From Candidatus Freyarchaeum deiterrae (lineage in GTDB: Archaea; Asgardarchaeota; Jordiarchaeia; Jordiarchaeales; Jordiarchaeaceae): a DNA stretch of 64,000 nt. The stretch spans positions 1,600,001 to 1,664,000 of the forward strand of contig CP147778.1 of NCBI GenBank assembly GCA_037305845.1, read 5' to 3'. Under the pieces are notes generated by a model, which was not told the DNA's origin, ran no database searches, and saw only the letters and a program-made list of their open reading frames with translations. The translations under genes and the position numbers were made by a program. Below, piece after piece: positions 9,227-48,220 of this stretch (its first letter is position 1; each line of letters begins with the position of its first letter).

Positions 9227-12200
9227 ATGAACGTTAAAAATGAAACAAATTTAAGTGAAACGTTCTTGAAGCCGGGGAGTATTCTAGAAGGCCCTTTCTG
9301 GCCTGAACGCATAAAGATTATTTCTTATAAAGAAATTGGAACTGGCGTCGAAGTTCAAGGTATAGGTTTAAAGTCTGAGCGATTCTACTCGCGCATTCTG
9401 CGGAAAAGTGATTTGGAAAAGGTGAAGAGAGTTGATTTGAGAAGGAAGGATTTTTCTGGAGATTCGGAAGCTTTCTTTTTAGTAATGGAAGGTAAGAGAA
9501 TTCGTTTTGCTTTCCAGTTTGACCCTCTATACGCAGTTAATGTCTCACAAATCGACCCTTTGCCTCACCAGATCGACGCTGTTTATCACTACGTCCTAAA
9601 GCAGCCGAGAATTAGATTCCTTATTGCCGATGACCCTGGCGCCGGCAAAACCATCATGGCCGGGCTTATACTTAAAGAGCTAAAGCAGAGGGGAATAGTT
9701 GAGAGAGTTCTTATAGTTATACCTGGACACCTCAGGGATCAGTGGGTTAGAGAGCTTAAGGAGAAGTTTGGCGAAACTTTCCGTACTATGGATAGGTCTG
9801 TAATGGACGCTTCGTGGGGGCGTAACATTTGGCTGGAAGAGAACCAAGCAATAACTTCAATGGATTTTGCAAAACAGAAAGATGTTATATTGAGCTTGGC
9901 GGAAACAAGATGGGATTTGGTCATTGTTGATGAAGCACACAAGATGGCAGCTTACGAGTATGGCGAGAAATTAAAGAAAACTGATAGGTACCAGCTCGGA
10001 GAGCTTTTATCAAAAAACAGCAACTTCATGCTCTTTTTGACCGCCACACCCGACAGGGGAGACCCGAGCAATTTTAGGCTTTTCTTAGACTTGCTTGAAC
10101 CCGGATTCTTTGCAACGAATGAGATGCTTGCAGAATCCATACAAAATAAAGACAATCCTCTCTTCCTAAGACGAATGAAAGAACATTTAAAGAACTTTGA
10201 CAATACGCCTTTGTTCCCTCCAAGAAAAGTAATAACAATCAAATATCGTCTGAGCGAAGATGAGAAACGTCTCTACAATGCTGTAACAGAATACGTTGAG
10301 AAACATTATAATAGAGCTATGCAAAAAAATAAGAGGAATGTCGCTTTCGCTCTCCTGATTCTTCAGAGGCGATTGGCATCTAGTGTAAGAGCTGTGAGAA
10401 GATCCTTGGAACGGAGAAGAGACCGTCTTCTAGAATTACACGAGCAGGGAACAATAATACAAGAAGCAGGATATATAGACGAAGAAGCCTTGGATGATTC
10501 CACAGAGCTTGAGAGATGGAAAAAGGAAGACGAACTGCTAGAAAAACTCACTTCCGCCGAAACACTCGATGAACTTGAAGATGAAATCGAGAGACTTAAC
10601 GAACTCATTAAATTGGCTAAGGAAGCCGAAAAGAAAGAAGTTGAAACAAAGCTTAACGAGCTCAAAAAGGTGATAGATGAAGAGAAACTTAAGAATGGAG
10701 AAAAGCTCCTGATATTCAGCGAATCTAAAGACACACTTGAATACCTAGTTGAAAAAATACGCAAGTGGGGCTATTCTGTAACATACATTCACGGCGCAAT
10801 GAACCTTGATAAAAGAATAAACGCGGAGCATGAGTTCAAAGAGAAGGTCCAGATAATGGTTTCTACAGAGGCTGGTGGAGAAGGAATAAACCTTCAGTTT
10901 TGCTGGATAATGGTTAACTATGACATTCCTTGGAATCCTAATAGGCTCGAGCAGAGGATGGGACGGATACACAGATATGGACAGAAGTACGAAGCCCACA
11001 TTTACAATCTCGTAGCTATTGACACAAGGGAAGGCAGAATTCTTGAAACACTTTTCAACAAGCTTGACATCATCAGGATGCATCTGGGAAGTGACAGAGT
11101 TTTCGATGTCATTGGAGATGTGCTACCTGGACGGAGCCTTCAAGACCTTATTATAGAAGCCATCACAAACAAACGCTCTTTAGAGGATATATTGAAGGAT
11201 ATCGAAAGAATTCCTAATGAGGAAGCTATTAAAAGGACAAGAGAAGCAACTCTTGAAGGTCTCGCAACAAAATACATCGACTTGACCCGCATTCTGGGCG
11301 AGACAAGAATAGCAAGAGAAAGCAGATTAGTCCCAGAATACATCGAGAAATTCTTCCTCAAAGCCTCAGAGAAGCTCGGCTTGAAGGTAGAGAAGAGAAA
11401 GGACGGTTTCTACAGAATAGCTAGTATTCCATATGAACTTAGAAAACTTCCTTTCGAATTCAAAACCAAGTTCGGCGAAGTTTACAGAGAATATGGCAAG
11501 CTTTCTTTTGATAAAGAGCAAGCATCAAAGGGACAAGCAGAGTTTGCAGCACCCGGACATCCTCTTCTTGAGGCAGTGGTGGAGAAGATTTTCGAAAAAT
11601 ACAGTGATGATGTTGAGAAGGGCACTGTTTTCTTAGATCCTTCTTGCAATATGAATGGTTATATCTGGTTTTTAGAGAGTATGATAAATGACGGGACAGG
11701 CTCTGTTGCTGGCAAGAGAATTTTCGCGCTATATCAAGACAGCCAGAATGAAATAAGACAGATTTCTCCCTCGGTTCTCTGGGACTTAAAGCCTCATCAC
11801 GCTTCGATGAACACGGAATTGCTGAACGCAGTGCCAAATGAAGATGTGATTCTTACTTTTGCTGTGGAAACTGTTTTGCCAAAATACCTTGACGAGTTAA
11901 AGAAGCAAAGGGAGCATGATGCAGAAATCAAAAGAAAGTACGGAGTTAGGTCTATTAAAGAACTAATTCTGCAATCCGAGGGAAAATTGCTCGATTATGA
12001 AACGAGAAGAGCGAAGGGGGAAAACATTCCAGAAGCCACAATCCAGAATGAGAGGAGAAACCGGGAGGAGTTGGAGAGAAAGAAGGAACAGCTTGAAAAG
12101 CAAATAGAGGCAGAAGTCAACCTTTTACTGTCGCCGCCGAAAATTCTTGGGGTTGTGGTTGTGTTGCCTAAGCTACCCGAAGACGATACTCTTAAAGAGG

Positions 12201-36620: not shown

Positions 36621-36715
36621 TTATCCAATTATTTTATAAAATATTAAGTTGTAAAAAATTATTTTAACTAAAAAGTCTAGATATCAATTTTAGATATCAA
36701 CCACTGATATCATCA

Positions 36716-37954
36716 TTAGCCTTGTGGGAGAGGAGGAACGTAATTAACCGTTTTTTTAATGTGATAATCGTTTTCGAGTATCCCTTTTATCTGTTCAGGA
36801 GGCATGTTGATCTTAATTTGTTTAGTCATGCCGTAACGACCCTCACTCTTGAGCTTAGCAATTATTATTCCGAGCATATCTAACTCTGCGATAAGTCCAC
36901 TGACACGCCTTTCTCCCAATATTTCCAGATTAACAATTTTACAAAGATCCGAATATACATCATAAACCAAACCAGTGGTTATTTTTGAGGATTTATTCCT
37001 GTCTAATAAGTAAATACTATAGAGGACAAGCTTAGATTGAATAGGAAGAGTTGAAATCACTTCCGAAACACGATCAGTCTCTAAAATACTTTGAGCCAGC
37101 TTAACACATTCCTGAGTAATTTTAGTCGCTCCCAGTCTTTCACCCTGCTCACCCGCAACACGCAAAAGATCCAAAGCGCGTCTAGCATCACCATGCTCTC
37201 TAGCCGCAAGAGCAGCGCAAAAATTAATCACGCCCGGTTCATCTAACACACCATCAGCGAAACTCATTTTCGCCCTCTCCCTAAGAATATCCTGCAACTC
37301 CAAGGCCCCATAAGGCGGAAAAACCAGCTCCTCTTCGCCCAAACTACTCAAAACCCGGGGATCCAAATTTTCTTTGAACTTTAGATTATTGGTAATGCCA
37401 ATAATACTGACACAAGCCGCCTTCAAAATAGAATGGTTAATCCTTGTTAAGTCATAAAGTACAGAATCTCCATCTTTATCCACTAATTTATCAACTTCAT
37501 CTAAAACAATAATCATAAGTCCCTTTCTAGAGTCCATTGCCGAGATAAAACGGTTGTAAACCTCGTCAGTAGGCAACCCTGTGAAGGGCACCTCAACACC
37601 AAGATTCTCACACAAATGAGCCAAAACACGATAATTAGTGTTAACAGTACTACAGTTCAAGTAAACATAATTGGGCGTTGAAACACCCATCTCTCTACAC
37701 TTTTCAGCCAAGTGTTTTAAAACATATTTAACCACTGCTGTTTTACCGGTTCCAGTTTTTCCATAAAGGAATACGTTAGACGGAGTTCCACTCTTTAGAG
37801 CAGTGGCTAAAATAATTCCCACTCGCCCTATCTCCTTAACACGATGCGGCAAGTTATCTGGAATATAAGTCGGACGAAGGACCTCCCGATCTTTGAATAT
37901 TCCTGGTCCCGAAAGGTATTTTTCGAATATGGAATCAAGGGGCTTCTCGCTCAT
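36716..37954 (-). CDS. cdc6: Orc1/Cdc6 replication initiator
   Basis: YIPDNLPHR, GKTGTGKT, VLDEVD, GDARRALDLLR and C-terminal wHTH. Confidence 0.96.
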   Translation of the reverse strand: MSEKPLDSIFEKYLSGPGIFKDREVLRPTYIPDNLPHRVKEIGRVGIILATALKSGTPSNVFLYGKTGTGKTAVVKYVLKHLAEKCREMGVSTPNYVYLNCSTVNTNYRVLAHLCENLGVEVPFTGLPTDEVYNRFISAMDSRKGLMIIVLDEVDKLVDKDGDSVLYDLTRINHSILKAACVSIIGITNNLKFKENLDPRVLSSLGEEELVFPPYGALELQDILRERAKMSFADGVLDEPGVINFCAALAAREHGDARRALDLLRVAGEQGERLGATKITQECVKLAQSILETDRVSEVISTLPIQSKLVLYSIYLLDRNKSSKITTGLVYDVYSDLCKIVNLEILGERRVSGLIAELDMLGIIIAKLKSEGRYGMTKQIKINMPPEQIKGILENDYHIKKTVNYVPPLPQG

Positions 37955-38290
37955 GCTTCAACCTCTATTATTTGATGTCTACGATTTAAACTTTAATCTT
38001 GGTATTACACCCGTAGGATACTCCAACCTCTATTAGTTGATGGTTTCCTCAAGTAGCTAAGCAGCTGAATAAGAAACCGTTTCAACACCAAGCTCTTGAG
38101 AAAACAGTCCATCCTCCAGGGAGGGAACTAGCAAAAATTGCTTTGGAAATCAAGGTAATAAAGGTTGCGCAGAGGTATAATAATAAATAATTGAATAACA
38201 GACGCGAAATGATGAAATCATTAAAAGATATCAAGCTAGATATCATAAAAAGTAATCCAAAAAAGGATACCAGAACAGGATATCAACAGT

Positions 38291-38782
38291 TCAAGTAAAC
38301 AGATAATCAAGTTGAGAGACGGCCTCAATCCTATCCTTCACTTTTTCTGTTCTAAGACGGTAACGATACTGTTTACGAGTACCAGTTCTCTCAAGCATAG
38401 ATTCCTTACTCTCGTCATAAATTCTAGCAAGGTAAGTAGACATAGTACTCAGAGGAAGACCCTCTTTAAAGAGATTAACATACTGCTCCTGAACATCATT
38501 AGAAGTAAACCACCCATGCTTGAAACACTTCAATAAAACAATCTCCACCTTCTCCTTCAGAGAGAGACTATCCAAATCAGTATAGGTGGCAGACACAGAA
38601 CTATCGCCAGAAGAACTATTACTAGAAACTTCGGACTCAACTTCAAACGAAGAAAATTTTTTTGATAGCGCCTCTACCAATGAGGCTGCTAAATGGGGTG
38701 GTATATCCCCCTCTAGGGTAAGCGTTACTTTGCGATCTGTTTCCGAATCCGAAATCTCAAACTTGTATTTTCTTTTTGGCAA
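38291..38782 (-). CDS. Winged-helix DNA-binding protein upstream of cdc6
   Basis: C-terminal WFTSNDV...LSTMSTYLARI...LERTG...YRYRL pattern. Confidence 0.75.
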   Translation of the reverse strand: MPKRKYKFEISDSETDRKVTLTLEGDIPPHLAASLVEALSKKFSSFEVESEVSSNSSSGDSSVSATYTDLDSLSLKEKVEIVLLKCFKHGWFTSNDVQEQYVNLFKEGLPLSTMSTYLARIYDESKESMLERTGTRKQYRYRLRTEKVKDRIEAVSQLDYLFT

Positions 38783-39070
38783 GCAGTTCCACCCGAAATT
38801 GAGGTACGGTAATAATTGTATTCACATGTATATATAGTTTATCTTTTAATAAGAAATTTGTGAACCAACCGATAAAAGAATCATAAAGAAAACAATAAAA
38901 CATAGTATAATATTTTACAAAATAAACACGAAATATTGACCAAAATACAAAAAAGAGGAAAAAATAAACCTTAAACAAAAAATAGAGTGCATTTTCCATA
39001 TTTTTTTATATTCACAGATTCACAAAAACACCATACTTAAAAACAATAAAAAAGAATTTTTATTAACAAT

Positions 39071-39090
39071 CTCCACTGGAAACAAAGGGG
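39071..39090 (+). promoter_or_regulatory. ORB element 1
   Basis: CTCCACTGGAAACAAAGGGG matches the TCCA-N-TGGAAA-N4-GGGG consensus. Confidence 0.88.
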
Positions 39091-39494
39091 TAAGTAATAA
39101 AAATGACATTAACACAAAAAGCCGAAATCTTTTCTAAAAATAACCAATTTAAAGCCTTATTTCAACAATCAGATTAACAAATGACGCGTCAACTGTGAAT
39201 GACATTAACACTGGAGATCCCAAGGAAAATTCTACTAATAATCAAAACACCGCCCCAGGAAGGTGAGAAAACAAGTTTCCTGAAGATAATTTCAAGATAT
39301 GATACCAATTTCAGATATCAATATTTGATATCATGGTTTTTTTAAACAATTAAAAAGCTTGGAACACATGTTCTAACAAAAACATCTGGGGCATATCAAA
39401 TTTTAATATGTCTTATACCTAAAAGAAAAATCAAACTGACTATAAAGAGGGACTTGAAATTAATTACATTTATGTATATGACATTCTACCGGGC

Positions 39495-39746
39495 ATGAAA
39501 AGAGATCCAGTGAGGATGAAGTTTTATAAAGAGTTGTTCGGCTTCAATTATTCTTGGGAAACAAAGAACCAAAGAAAAGTTAAATATCAACCCGGTTTGC
39601 TAGACTATGAGGGATGCGAGACGGCGGGTGACAGCGCAATATTAGTTCCTGAAGAGTATGTAGAAGAGTTCAATTCCTTTTTCAGAAAGTATCGGAATAT
39701 TATCTCATGCCGAGTTTTTATAGTACAAGAGGAAGTAAAACTATAG
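39495..39746 (+). CDS. Small hypothetical protein inside the origin, possible ferredoxin-like (Cas2/VapD-like) fold
   Basis: The frame stays open upstream through YIYVYDI, then R.KFYKELFG...GLL...S.ILVP. True start uncertain. Confidence 0.6.
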   Translation: MKRDPVRMKFYKELFGFNYSWETKNQRKVKYQPGLLDYEGCETAGDSAILVPEEYVEEFNSFFRKYRNIISCRVFIVQEEVKL

Positions 39747-39815
39747 AAATTAGAACACGTGTTCTAATTAATTAAAATTCGGCCCTCAAAAGGTAAAAAG
39801 TCAATCAAACCCCTA

Positions 39816-39836
39816 CCCCAACATTTCTACTGGAAA
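39816..39836 (-). promoter_or_regulatory. ORB element 2 (inverted)
   Basis: Minus strand reads TTTCCAGTAGAAATGTTGGGG. Confidence 0.82.
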
Positions 39837-39991
39837 TACTAACTACCCTTAGCATGGTATTTGTTTGTTAGTTAGTAACTACTCCCCCGTTTAAAATTGT
39901 TTCTTTCTATATTTAAACATACTTATCAAAGTTTTTCGATTAACAACTCAAGATTTATTTCCAATAAAATTTGTAATCAACAGTAAACAGT

Positions 39992-40012
39992 TTTCCAGTA
40001 GAAACCAAGGGG
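39992..40012 (+). promoter_or_regulatory. ORB element 3
   Basis: TTTCCAGTAGAAACCAAGGGG. Confidence 0.85.
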
Positions 40013-42099
40013 TGCGTTTTTAAAACTTTCCAAGTCACCTTCCAGGATTAGAGAACCGAACTAAACTTTTCAAAAAATAGTAAACCCATTGGAATAGCTC
40101 TTAGAGTTAATTTATGGTAACTAAATGAGCAGCATACAAATTAAAGAACTGTGGTCAGTAAAGAATGGTTTCATTTCTTGTATTAGTGAACAATGTGAAT
40201 CTTTCTGAAAAAGAAAGTTACGAGTATCAAAAAAGTAATATCTGGATCCGCGTCGTCATTATTTTTTCGAACGATGTTTAACCGGTAACTAATGCTATAC
40301 CTCATCAGCACGCTATCTATTTTTGATTTCGAGAGTAGACATCATTGTCTGATATCAATTTTTAGCATCATTTTTTGATGTCAAGGTATTCTTAGTAGTC
40401 GGATTAGAATTTGTGCTGATAATCAAATCGAGTAGTACAATCTAATTCCTTTGAAATTGGTTGCAAACATGTAGTTCTTGACCGTTCAGGCACTATGAGA
40501 ACCTGAGTTAATTGTCCTGTAATCATAATTCCTGTAATTTAGTTTACTGCAGCTCTCAAAATTATTCTAAATTGTCAAATATTAAAAGTTTAAACCAATG
40601 GAACTAGGTGGATCTGTTTTTATGAATTGGATATATTTGGGGGCTTTTATTATTTCGAGAATATTGAAGATTGTAACTGCTATCCTTTTTACGAAGATCA
40701 AAGCAAGAAAACCTCATCACCTCTCAAAAGGTAGGGAATAAATTTACAGGGTTTAAAATGCAAAAAGGAAAAAAGTATAATGGGACTGGATTACCCTGAA
40801 AGTTGGGAAGATATTAATTTGAGGGTGATATGCCCCGCATTTCTAACTATAATTCAGAAGTGTAGATCCTAACCTTCAATTTTTTGGGGTATTCCAGAAT
40901 AAGCAGACAGCAATATTTGGGGGCATTCCCTCTTTCTATATATTGATTCAAAAACTCGCGTGGGATTGATCCGGAAAAGATAATTTCATTTTCTTACTTT
41001 TATTCGCCCCTATTTAATGTAAATTTGGAAGAGCCGAAATTTTGATATCAAAAGATGTAATCCATAAATGATATTTAATGCAGATATCAGATATCTTAAA
41101 TAGATATCAAAAATGATATCAAGCAGTTAGAGGAATAAGAAATCAGCGGCAGGACCAGGACTTACAAGACGTTGGCCTGCTTTACTTTAATCGAGGTAGA
41201 AAAGCTGAAGAATAAAAACAAAAAGATATCATTGTTATTGCTCTTAATCTGAAAGAATTATCTAGAAAATTTAGAAAAATGTTTACAAAAGTGTATACGG
41301 AGAACCCTCCTCCGTAGGAACCGCGAAAATTTCTTACTATATTAAGGGAGTAATATCTAGATAGTCTATATGGGTTAAAAAACGCATAAAAACCGATATT
41401 TTAACCGAACTCATTGAGATAATAGACAAAAAAGATTTTTAAAAAAGAAAATAATAGAGCTTTTCAACAAAAATAACGAATTTTAATCTTTGAATTTTCG
41501 TAAAATGAATGATATTAAGCGAGGCAATAACCCTTGGTAGTAATTTTTGAAACATAGATTTTGAGAATTAGCCTGGGGCTACTATCAAAATATACCAGCG
41601 CTTGCAAATCTTATCATATCTACGACTGGTTCCTATTTTTTCATTGTTTTTTAAAAAGACCACTGGTAAACCTGTTGCTTGAGTAAAGCTGAAAATTATA
41701 ATTCCAGCAATTGTAACGCTTGGCTTCGGAAATTGCACGCATGGAAAATTCTTTCGGATTAACGGTCAGGGTCTTGATCCCTTTTAGTTTTTAACTTTTT
41801 TATTATTTGAGTTGGTTTTCTACTATTACTGTTCCTCTCGTTTGTAGCTCTTTGATGCATTTTTTTATTACGTCTCGACCCTTTGATATCTCTTTCTGAT
41901 ATCTTTTTCTGAAATCAGTATCTGATTTCGATATCTTTATCAATTATGAGTAATAATAAAATATTTGCCAATTGTTATTTATTCCGTAGCCAGTTGGAAA
42001 TCATTTGAGTATATCATTAAATAATGGTTGAAATGTTATCCAAGGGCGTTGTTTCGTCTTTATTGTATGGTTGAAGCATTTAATTTAGAGGTGATACTC

Positions 42100-43161
42100 A
42101 TGGAAGAAAAGTCTGGTGTTGTTGGTAAGCTTTATCCTGGTGTGGCTGAGGCTAGAAATGCTTATTATGAGCGTGTTGGATGGAAGTGGAATCCTTTTGC
42201 TAAGGTTCGCTTGAGCGACCCTGAACTCTTTGTTGCTTCTACCGATGTGATTTTAGAGATTGATGATTATATTAAGGCGAAGGAAAGGCATCTCCTAATT
42301 ACGAGTGAAGAACCTGGTATGGGTAAGACTATGCTTTTGGAGCTGATTTTTAATGATCTTATTCTGTTGTCTAAGCAGGAGAATAAAGAGTATTTGTTTA
42401 ATCCCATAGTGGTGAATCAGAGTAAATTGTTTGTGCGTCAGATGGGAGAGGTGATAGCGAAGAAGTTGGATATAAAATACACGAGTAAAATGAGTTCTGA
42501 GGATATTTACACGTTGATTAAGAAGGATATTATGACGCGTTTTCTTTTGACGAATTGGATGACTCTGATTTTTATTGATGATTTTGGTGATAATGATTCC
42601 GAGGTTTTTATTAAGCTTAAGGAGTTGGGTGATCTAACCCAGAAAGACGCTAATAATTATCTTTTTAACCAAGAATCTGATTTTAAGAAGTATGCTAGTT
42701 CTGCGAATTATCAATTATCTAAGGACAAATTGAATGAGCTGAAAAAAAACGCTTTGGATCCTGAAAGTAGGGATCAAATGATTTGTATGCTGATACTTAC
42801 TGGAACTAAATCTCATGCGTTGGGGCTAAAGACCGGGGTTCCTCATCTTTATGATCGTTGCTGGGAAATTGAACTCGACAGACTGGATAGAAAAAAGGTT
42901 CGGGAGCTTATTGGAAGAAGATTGTATTGGGCAGGTGGAAAACTGGCGAGTTTTAAAGAGGACAACTTTGAAACTTATCCCTTTGATGAGGACGCCATTT
43001 CTGTTTTGACGGAAAAGGCTCACGGCGTAGGGCGGGACCTACGTCTGCTTTGTAATCAGGCAGTGTTTGTTGCAGCTTCAAACTTGAAGGACGGGCGAAG
43101 CGAAAGGATTACCAAAGAGATAATCGAATCTTTGCCACCGGTAGAAAAATTAGTAGATTAA
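42100..43161 (+). CDS. AAA+ ATPase (ExeA/Cdc6-like architecture)
   Basis: GAGGTGA RBS, N-terminal W.WNPF, Walker A EEPGMGKT, Walker B IFIDD, and YPF...G.GRDL..LC lid. Confidence 0.85.
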   Translation: MEEKSGVVGKLYPGVAEARNAYYERVGWKWNPFAKVRLSDPELFVASTDVILEIDDYIKAKERHLLITSEEPGMGKTMLLELIFNDLILLSKQENKEYLFNPIVVNQSKLFVRQMGEVIAKKLDIKYTSKMSSEDIYTLIKKDIMTRFLLTNWMTLIFIDDFGDNDSEVFIKLKELGDLTQKDANNYLFNQESDFKKYASSANYQLSKDKLNELKKNALDPESRDQMICMLILTGTKSHALGLKTGVPHLYDRCWEIELDRLDRKKVRELIGRRLYWAGGKLASFKEDNFETYPFDEDAISVLTEKAHGVGRDLRLLCNQAVFVAASNLKDGRSERITKEIIESLPPVEKLVD

Positions 43162-43259
43162 CTATAGTGATATCTAAAAGAGATATTTAATGAAACAATA
43201 ATGACCGATATCTTAATATTGACATCCTGATAATGATATCTTAATAATGATATCAAAAA

Positions 43260-43727
43260 ATGGTTTCAGGAGTAGATATCTTGCCTAGGCTTACTAAAAT
43301 CGCCGAGAAGGCGCGTGAACAAGAAGCTTTAAAGCAAGCGTCTGAGGATGCTTCTAAATCTCTTAGTACTGAAAACGTTGAAATTGCAAATTTAAAAACT
43401 TCAGATGCCATTGGTCGATTAACTGCGAGCGGTGGATTAGCTGGATTAGAGCACAGCCCCGAAGGCGTTAAGATTGTTGAGAAGATTGTTTATCGTTATG
43501 TAAGAAAGGATCCTGACACTCGGCTCGATACTAATTTTAATGTTAGAATGCCCAGTAACTACTTGGATTTTTTAAAAGGTAGATTTGGAGAAAGAGGCGC
43601 AACTGTTTTTTGTAGGATAGCAATTCTTGAGAAAATGGAGAAGGCTTTTTCAAAACCAGAGCTTGATCCTCTTAAGCTTTTTGAGTTATTGGATGAGCAA
43701 AAACAGAATCTCTCTCGAAAATCGTAA
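43260..43727 (+). CDS. Hypothetical protein with probable C-terminal ribbon-helix-helix domain
   Basis: TNFNVRMP-SNYLDFLK-GRFGERG-ATVFCRIAILEKM fits the beta-alpha-alpha pattern. Flexible N-terminus. Confidence 0.7.
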   Translation: MVSGVDILPRLTKIAEKAREQEALKQASEDASKSLSTENVEIANLKTSDAIGRLTASGGLAGLEHSPEGVKIVEKIVYRYVRKDPDTRLDTNFNVRMPSNYLDFLKGRFGERGATVFCRIAILEKMEKAFSKPELDPLKLFELLDEQKQNLSRKS

Positions 43728-43962
43728 ACATTTTTTTATTTTCCCTAATTTTTGATATCATTTTTTGGTATCTTTTTGTGCTATCTTATTTATTTTTGCA
43801 TTTATATAATTTGACAATTTGCTTTTTAGTATATTATATTTGCAGTATACTTTTCTGGAAATAGGAAATGAGAAAGCAATGGACGCTAGTCCTCGCTATA
43901 AAAGATTTGGTAGGTTACGAAAGAGATTGTATTGAAGAAAAAACTGAGGGATGTGATGCGTG

Positions 43963-44511
43963 TTACTCTTTTCGTCCGGTTAGGAAGAAGGGGTTTGCGT
44001 ATTTTTGGATCATGTCTAGTAGGTTTTTTTCTAGTATTTTGAGTGCCGCTTTTTTCTCTTTGGTTTGTTCCTTTTCGTGACTTAGTTCCATCTGCTCCAT
44101 GTAGTTGCTTATAATGTTGGACATGTCGAGATATGGATGTAAGCTTGGGCTATCCAGAATACCGACGTAGCCCAATAGCACGAGAGAGTATATTGCTTCT
44201 ATTAGGTTGGTACAGGCCTGTCCTAGAACTCTTCTAAAGGCGCCACGTGTAACCCCTTTTGTTTTTAATGGTGCGCGAAATTTACGCTTCTGGCTAGGCG
44301 CTCTTAAGAATCCTTTAATTTTATACTTTACAGGTTTGCCGGCGCCTTCATCCAGTAGGAAATTAATCATGAGGGTCTCAAATTGGACTGGCGTAATATT
44401 AGATGAACTGAGTAGTTTACTAACGATAGGATCTGCTAATATATTCTCAACATATTCCCGAACTTTCTCAATATCTCGCTTTTCTGAATCACTGTCATTT
44501 TTAGATAGCAT
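43963..44511 (-). CDS. Conserved-looking archaeal hypothetical protein (possible HTH)
   Basis: SNIT..QFETL...VTRGAF.R.L.QA..N...AIY..VLLGYVG. Flanked on both sides by GATATC clusters. Confidence 0.75.
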   Translation of the reverse strand: MLSKNDSDSEKRDIEKVREYVENILADPIVSKLLSSSNITPVQFETLMINFLLDEGAGKPVKYKIKGFLRAPSQKRKFRAPLKTKGVTRGAFRRVLGQACTNLIEAIYSLVLLGYVGILDSPSLHPYLDMSNIISNYMEQMELSHEKEQTKEKKAALKILEKNLLDMIQKYANPFFLTGRKE

Positions 44512-44581
44512 CTTATGCTCCCTTCTTTAAATTTTTATTATAGTAATGATGTCACTAATTGATATCATTTCACGAAATCTT

Positions 44582-48026: not shown

Positions 48027-48220
48027 CTTACAAACAATATCAAATATGGGTAGGTATTCTTTTTGGAGACTATTTTACTTCGGTGTTTGTAATCTTTTTT
48101 CGATATCAAAAAAAGATATCTGAATGCGGTGTGTTTTCCTCTCATCCTGCGTTTTTGCTTTTCAAAGTAGGCTTGTAATTATTTTTTGGCGCCTTTTAGA
48201 CATTTATTCCCAAAGATATG

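Follow-up and report, generated by a model that had tools for sequence, protein, structure and literature searches.

A candidate partition system with an AAA+ ATPase and origin-confined repeat arrays in Candidatus Freyarchaeum deiterrae and other Asgard archaea

Beside a replication origin in the complete, single-contig genome of Candidatus Freyarchaeum deiterrae (3,576,204 bp), two adjacent genes, encoding an AAA+ ATPase and a small protein with a probable ribbon-helix-helix (RHH) fold, lie amid phased arrays of the hexamer GATATC. We suggest, with a probability of about 0.65, that this pair and its arrays constitute a partition system with an AAA+ motor. The genome is most likely the complete freyarchaeial one reported in PMC11291895. 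The working sequence was a 64,000-nt stretch of it, genome positions 1,600,001-1,664,000 (the window; positions refer to it unless otherwise stated), in which the original prediction had described two co-oriented genes about 2 kb from the origin recognition boxes (ORBs), with GATATC clusters before, between and after them. Both genes are real open reading frames (ORFs) on the plus strand, all three clusters are present, and the nearest ORB-like box is ~1.9 kb from the first of them. The proposal of segregation by something other than ParA has also gained support, as far as sequence comparison can provide it: ParAB occupies the same slot in another lineage, no ParA is found here, the arrays follow the pair, and related plasmid cassettes lack ParA.

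The arrays are almost confined to this locus. Exact GATATC occurs nine times in the stretch 41885-43785, where 0.47 copies are expected, and 28 times at 36.6-48.2 kb against an expectation of 2.9 (Poisson p 1.5e-18); the best other window of 11.6 kb contains 9. All 8 of the 8 triples with a 13-bp period found genome-wide are located at 36680-44548, and 16 of 22 dyads of this period with at most one mismatch are found in the 12-kb origin region, leaving 6 for the rest of the 3.58-Mb genome. The phasing is 13 bp, the spacers are A/T-rich, and a genome-wide spacing scan detected no GATATC spacings of 8-11 or 15-17 in the 12-kb origin region. As in the centromeres of type I partition systems, iterated repeats flank the operon.

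The locus was compared across Asgard genomes, with lineage labels that are inferred: Freyarchaeia (f1), Jordarchaeales (f2), Odinarchaeia (f3), Thorarchaeia (f7), Atabeyarchaeia (f13) and Gerdarchaeales (f25); families f9, f12, f20 and f33 are referred to by number. The strongest single argument for partition, one of gene content and order, is that provided by Atabeyarchaeia. None of the three genomes has the pair; all of them carry canonical ParA and ParB genes, located after the ORBs and before the homologue of the gene at 43963. The order there (DP1, cdc6, ORB, one gene, ParA, ParB, 43963 homologue, helix-turn-helix/CBS) is that of Freyarchaeia and Jordarchaeales with ParAB replacing the pair, and arrays of the GATATC type, or of the GTAWTAC type described below, are absent from the three genomes. 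Since the neighbours are shared and the arrays are not, the pair, rather than the neighbours, is the better candidate for the array binder. Strong ParA matches occur in 23 of 400 Asgard genomes and almost never where the pair is present: in 0 of the 37 other genomes of f1, f2, f3, f12, f20 and f33, in 1/12 Gerdarchaeales, and in 1/89 of a group consisting mostly of Thorarchaeia. No ParA was found in the complete genome studied here, the ParA-like matches being read from sequence as CooC, Mrp, ArsA and RadB. A separate observation in Atabeyarchaeia is a repeated word close to TGTTACATAAGA, which occurs in either orientation in the interval from the ORBs to parA (L116 8950-9350, L117 9030-9170, L118 near 10900-11000) and is a candidate for an archaeal parS or for the operator of a 120-aa gene located there.

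The repeats differ between lineages and follow the pair, not cdc6 or other neighbours. In five relatives from Freyarchaeia and Jordarchaeales, every perfect GATATC-N7-GATATC is at this locus. Thorarchaeia and Gerdarchaeales have no such dyads; they have GTAWTAC, repeated every 9 bp, on either side of the genes or between them. Genome-wide, 8/9, 5/5, 16/18, 17/18 and 11/11 of the GTAWTAC dyads in five genomes are near the pair, within ~3 kb of it in Gerdarchaeales and within 12-40 kb in Thorarchaeia. A third motif, TTCAWTGAA, again with a 9-bp period, is found in f12, and almost all of its copies in the genome are at the locus. Because the motifs were picked from the flanks, counts in the flanks are circular; confinement within the whole genome is not. 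The predicted ribbon strand of the small protein changes together with the repeat, one kind for each lineage with a clear motif (NFNVR with GATATC at 13 bp, VSFSI/ISATV with GTAWTAC at 9 bp, ISASV with TTCAWTGAA at 9 bp), which argues for partition. In four genomes of Jordarchaeales (L025 10124-10170, L026, L027, L029) three GATATC sites, 13-15 bp apart, were also noted within the ATPase coding sequence, and one or two GTAWTAC words are found ~110-130 bp upstream of the ATPase (L025, L028, L029), perhaps as the remnant of an older site.

Such repeats could also be operators. Clusters are located upstream of the ATPase gene, the small gene, cdc6 and the 43963 gene, and all those of Freyarchaeia are intergenic, which is what would be seen if the RHH protein repressed an origin-proximal cell-cycle regulon and the ATPase modulated this repression (for a comparison, see aCcr1 of Sulfolobales, PMC9976892). 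We consider this decidedly unlikely, since the sites occur only around this locus and not at promoters genome-wide, and about a third of the clusters in Freyarchaeia lie between convergent 3' ends. In Thorarchaeia, 50 of 100 site clusters are inside coding sequence and 16 are between convergent genes, an arrangement that fits a parS-like centromere better than operators.

A profile search over Asgard genomes detected the ATPase, nearly always as a single copy, in 4/5 genomes of Freyarchaeia, 5/5 of Jordarchaeales, 4/4 of Odinarchaeia, 3/3 of f20, 1/1 of f33 and 9/12 of Gerdarchaeales, in 78/89 of the mostly thorarchaeial group, and in 0/135 of f9. In the one congener without the pair (G005), cdc6 and the 43963 gene are missing as well, which points to an assembly gap. 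In f12, genus g13 has a diverged, longer ATPase with the same partner at the origin locus. The pair is within ~5 kb of cdc6 in Freyarchaeia, Jordarchaeales, Odinarchaeia, f20 and f12. In three thorarchaeial genomes the distance to the main cdc6 is 75 kb to 1 Mb, and ORB boxes are 9-15 kb from the pair; thus, the link is with the origin and not with the cdc6 gene. In Gerdarchaeales no ORB was found on the contig of the pair, and a second cdc6 paralogue is 11 kb away. The ATPase tree clusters by lineage and leaves the deep branches open.

The ATPase is an AAA+ protein of the Cdc6/TnsC/MuB/ExeA group and not a ParA. This sharpens the original assignment, which was made from the motifs EEPGMGKT and IFIDD (both present) and from the lack of KGGxGK. 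Its AlphaFold2 model is confident (pLDDT 88), and the fold matches (VIA Z 19.7-16.8) are to Cdc6/ORC (18-20), TnsC (17.5) and MuB (16.8). Cdc6 chains align over the AAA+ part only; the 353-aa protein ends after the lid, and the model contains no C-terminal winged helix, membrane segment or other extra domain. Walker A (K76), sensor I (T236), the arginine finger (DR) and sensor II (R312) are kept across lineages, and the helical lid and the helical insert after strand 2 that are typical of the initiator/TnsC/MuB group are present. The Walker B consensus hhhhDE is replaced by DD in Freyarchaeia and Jordarchaeales, by ED in Thorarchaeia and Gerdarchaeales and by DQ in some haloarchaeal copies; Odinarchaeia, f20 and f12 have DE. 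Neither a deviant Walker A (KGGxGK[ST]), a SIMIBI fold nor an AAA_31 match was found at the ATPase gene, and the confident P-loop AAA+ model has no actin or tubulin fold of the type II/III motor kind. PDB sequence searches gave no useful match for the ATPase or the small protein.

In sequence, the nearest named group is ExeA-like: the best NCBIfam match is TIGR03015 (17.9 bits, far under the cut-off of 324.5), homologues match Pfam AAA_22, and the homologue in Odinarchaeia carries the annotation 'ExeA family protein'. The secretion or PEP-CTERM genes typical of an ExeA context were not found, the neighbours being origin genes. The resemblance to TnsC, MuB and ExeA in fold and sequence, and the occurrence of relatives on plasmids and in other contexts, might suggest the relic of a mobile element (a TnsC/TniB/IstB-type ATPase) or a secretion-related ExeA next to which the repeats are incidental. 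This is highly improbable, and largely refuted by conserved synteny and origin-confined arrays. The gene is single-copy, intact, fixed in position across classes and clustered by lineage in the tree, and no transposase or secretion gene was recognised among the conserved neighbours, not all of which were scanned against transposase families.

For the small protein, a flexible N-terminus and a C-terminal RHH motif had been predicted. The alignment displays a conserved N-terminal helix at residues 8-25, followed by a low-complexity linker of variable length and a conserved C-terminal strand-helix-helix pattern; the RHH motif is only weakly supported, the match to Pfam Arc (residues 89-132) having an E value of 0.053, under the cut-off. 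Positional equivalents in other lineages have the same architecture, with RHH_1 at E 2.2e-4 (over the cut-off) in Gerdarchaeales, Arc at E 7e-4 in one haloarchaeal copy, and weak NikR and Rv0298 matches elsewhere. On these profile matches an RHH fold is probable. No ParB Pfam match was obtained for the small protein or its homologues in a test in which the ParB of Atabeyarchaeia scores clearly. Structure prediction, proposed earlier as a check, was confident for the ATPase as an AAA+ protein, and for the small protein it gave a monomer of low confidence (pLDDT 54), with which a fold search returned generic helical pairs only. An ESM Atlas feature search produced only leads below 0.9, one of them a ParB C-terminal cluster. 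Prediction of a complex (two ATPase chains, the small protein and ATP/Mg) scored 0.00 and was counted neither for nor against. Translation of the small protein may start at TTG 43281, preceded by GGAG 8 nt upstream, giving the 148-aa form found in databases.

More distant ATPase relatives led to haloarchaeal plasmids. Similar cassettes are present on three complete replicons, pNG100 of Haloarcula marismortui (33 kb), a 29.8-kb Natrinema plasmid and a 58-kb Natronosalvus plasmid-prophage. In each, a related ATPase gene is followed by a 70-106-aa gene of the tail-plus-RHH-like type, and short repeats peculiar to each replicon precede and separate the two genes; in pNG100 and the Natrinema plasmid they follow the genes too. 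The cassette of pNG100 is located at about 17.3-18.9 kb. ParA is absent from all three replicons, and cdc6 from those of Natrinema and Natronosalvus.

The cassette immediately precedes orc1/cdc6 on pNG100 and on two plasmids of larger size. Together with the top fold matches (Cdc6/ORC) and the array between inward-facing ORBs, this would suit control of the origin. In such a scheme the RHH protein coats sites within and near oriC, while the Cdc6-like ATPase, for instance through co-assembly with Orc1 or by loading the helicase, would license, block or sequester the origin or set the copy number of a plasmid. We regard this as unlikely, given that two cassette plasmids have no cdc6, that sites in Thorarchaeia reach 20-30 kb from the origin, and that the replacement in Atabeyarchaeia is ParAB, not a replication factor. 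Origin licensing, which had been offered as the alternative to segregation, is therefore the weaker of the two: the pair remains close to the ORBs where cdc6 has moved away, and there are plasmids that carry it but no cdc6. Quite unlikely, too, is an organiser or anchor of the chromosome without active movement, whose arrays would seed an origin domain that is compacted or tethered to the membrane, or would load an SMC-type complex, the ATPase acting as a remodeller. The dispersal of sites over 12-30 kb, many of them within genes, and the envelope-binding C-terminal domains often found in bacterial ExeA relatives would agree with such a role; the absence of a membrane segment or extra domain from the 353-aa ATPase, and the presence of cassettes on plasmids of 30-58 kb, where large-scale organisation is unlikely to matter, would not. 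Origin control, chromosome organisation and transcription control are compatible with partition and do not exclude it; bacterial Soj regulates DnaA too.

In the partition system that we favour, dimers of the small protein would use the RHH ribbon to bind the palindromic hexamers and would line the phased arrays closely, forming a centromere spread over 12-30 kb around oriC. The ATP-bound ATPase would oligomerise on non-specific DNA, like its structural relatives TnsC and MuB, the latter of which coats DNA in its ATP-bound state (PMC3894238). By analogy to ParG/ParF and MuA/MuB, the N-terminal helix of the adaptor, on its flexible linker, would contact the ATPase and bring about hydrolysis and release. 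Sister origins might then be separated by a diffusion ratchet, or by filaments that grow and shrink; the data fit both alike. Autoregulation of the operon through the upstream array is likely whatever the model.

Several points weigh against partition. DNA binding, contact between ATPase and adaptor, and segregation itself are inferred. Hydrolysis may be slow, since Walker B lacks the usual glutamate in Freyarchaeia and Jordarchaeales (DD) and reads ED in Thorarchaeia and Gerdarchaeales. The RHH match of the Freyarchaeum protein is under the Pfam cut-off, and the partner proteins of different lineages have no homology detectable by profile comparison (HHalign not significant). The co-variation of motif and ribbon strand comes from only about four independent lineages. 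The predicted co-occurrence of pair, arrays and origin is seen in several Asgard lineages, but no genome-confined array was found in Odinarchaeia, f20 or f33, where the GTAWTAC dyad pattern has no origin cluster and GTAWTAC-like words are found at gene ends only. Both the pair and ParA are missing from many Asgard lineages (in f9, the pair in 0/135 genomes and ParA in 9/135), and in four lineages the origin locus has neither system within ~10 kb; thus, the slot is not obligatory. Finally, the ATPases of Asgard archaea and of haloarchaea are not resolved in the tree as a single clade separate from ExeA, so that the plasmid cassettes may be independent recruitments.

Likenesses to described systems are partial. 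As in type Ib (ParF-ParG-parH) and type II (ParM-ParR-parC) systems, an NTPase gene precedes that of a small adaptor, here a candidate one with a probable RHH fold and a tail predicted to be flexible, repeats stand before, between and after the genes, and related cassettes are found on small plasmids; here, however, the motor is AAA+, neither a deviant-Walker ParA nor an actin, and the system is chromosomal and origin-linked, with sites over 12-30 kb. SegAB-segS of Sulfolobales, an archaeal system with a layout like the one proposed here, combines a chromosomal ATPase, an RHH-containing adaptor with an N-terminal ATPase-binding part, and an adjacent triple repeat. SegA, by contrast, is of ParA type, and no sequence match to the SegA, SegB or SegC structures was found here; segS of S. 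acidocaldarius is 166 kb from oriC2 (PMC12139799, PMC11381335), whereas the arrays here surround oriC. Chromosomal ParABS, found here in Atabeyarchaeia, shares the slot by oriC and origin-confined sites, many of them within genes; the pair lacks the N-terminal (CTPase) domain of ParB and any ParA, and its sites are phased short repeats and not 16-bp parS. MuB and TnsC have the same fold (Z 16.8-17.5), likewise without a winged helix, and offer a precedent for a DNA-bound ATPase that is cleared by a site-bound partner, but no transposase was recognised near the pair, whose partner is a small RHH-like protein and whose ATPase gene is a fixed, single-copy chromosomal one. ExeA/GspA/MshM (AAA_22, TIGR03015), the nearest named sequence family, differ in their C-terminal envelope domain and secretion genes, both lacking here, where the tie is to origin and repeats. 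Cdc6/Orc1, the best structural match of the AAA+ core (Z 18-20) and similarly origin-linked, have a winged-helix domain that is absent from the ATPase; identity is 10-15%, and the true cdc6 is 4 kb away.

Features of the locus in the window (positions in nt; strand "." for features without orientation)
Feature	Positions	Strand	Remarks
AAA+ ATPase, candidate partition motor	42100..43161 (ATG 42100 to stop)	+	353 aa; GAGGTGA just 5' of ATG
Small protein, candidate centromere-binding adaptor	43260..43727	+	155 aa; C-terminal probable RHH ~89-132
GATATC array upstream of ATPase, 13-bp period	41885..41935	.	exact 41885, 41898, 41930; variants 41911, 41924; conserved in relatives
GATATC array between both genes, 13-14-bp period	43169..43280	.	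exact 43169, 43207, 43235, 43249, 43275, plus variants; conserved in relatives
GATATC array 3' of small gene, between convergent 3' ends	43754..43785	.	43754 plus 43767, 43780
GATATC triple between convergent 3' ends of DP1 and cdc6	36680..36711	.	
GATATC cluster upstream of cdc6	38214..38284	.	
GATATC triple between two inward-facing ORB boxes	39301..39332	.	
Degenerate GATATC array, 13-bp period	40312..40382	.	
GATATC cluster	41044..41120	.	
GATATC triple upstream of 43963 gene	44548..44579	.	
Outermost perfect GATATC dyad	48102..48120	.	equivalent dyad in two congeners
Replication origin	39071..40012	.	ORB-like boxes 39071(+), 39816-39835(-), 39993(+); similar boxes at same locus in relatives
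cdc6/orc1 with winged helix (context)	36716..37954	-	Pfam Cdc6_C, Cdc6_lid
Conserved helical protein, 182 aa	43963..44511	-	moves with locus; adjoins ParAB in Atabeyarchaeia

The 43963 protein is possibly an accessory factor and unlikely to bind the arrays; this protein, the 38291 protein and Cdc6 were set aside as array binders, as Atabeyarchaeia keep their genes without having arrays. Identity of the 43963 protein with SegC is unsupported, no sequence match to SegC structures having been obtained. An apparent TAG within its homologue in Odinarchaeia falls upstream of the probable start. Between the inward-facing ORBs there is an 83-aa ORF (39495-39746, +), which possibly starts earlier, is flanked by related palindromes near 39360 and 39750, and has homologues, likewise at the origin, in the majority of the Asgard lineages examined, some without the pair among them. 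A 163-aa gene (38291-38782, -) just upstream of cdc6 is conserved at the origin across Asgard lineages and has no Pfam match. The ~2.3 kb at 39750-42100 are AT-rich and contain several arrays and no convincing ORF; Jordarchaeales and f20 carry a 115-130-aa gene in this place. Cumulative G-C skew peaks at genome positions 1,660-1,684 kb, 20-40 kb from the ORBs, and two divergent cdc6 paralogues are beside this peak (1,681-1,684 kb). As the peak is a maximum, a terminus by bacterial convention, either the leading strand is rich in C or the assignment should be checked.

Two arrangements from other contigs were also recorded. On a metagenome contig (L093 2820-19954), the pair is 6 kb from cdc6, amid topoisomerase VI, gyrase and a ubiquitin E1/E2/Ub-like cluster. 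On contigs of Bathyarchaeia (L097 2990-5021, L091), a close relative of the ATPase is preceded by a 69-aa RHH-like gene and followed by a KaiC/RecA-like ATPase; this arrangement differs from that of the pair, is near a D5 primase and is possibly mobile.

No description of the module was found in the literature searched, in a search that missed many subscription papers, and a 2024 review points only to ParA/ParB homologues for chromosome segregation in Asgard archaea (PMC7617429). We lean towards a broader claim as well, namely that the pair represents a new class of partition system with a motor from the Cdc6/TnsC/MuB group, which would serve as the chromosome segregation machine in several Asgard classes, with origin-spanning repeat centromeres that diverge rapidly, would be interchangeable with ParABS, and would occur on haloarchaeal plasmids too. 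The lineage-specific repeats yield exact predictions of binding, and with the cassette that Haloarcula marismortui has on pNG100 the idea can be put to the test in hosts that grow in culture and are amenable to genetics. In its layout the module belongs with known partition systems, and the motor would be of a new type. The partition motors described to date are, to our knowledge, ParA, actin or tubulin; an AAA+ motor, if true, would add a fourth and connect partition with the pattern-forming chemistry of MuB and TnsC.

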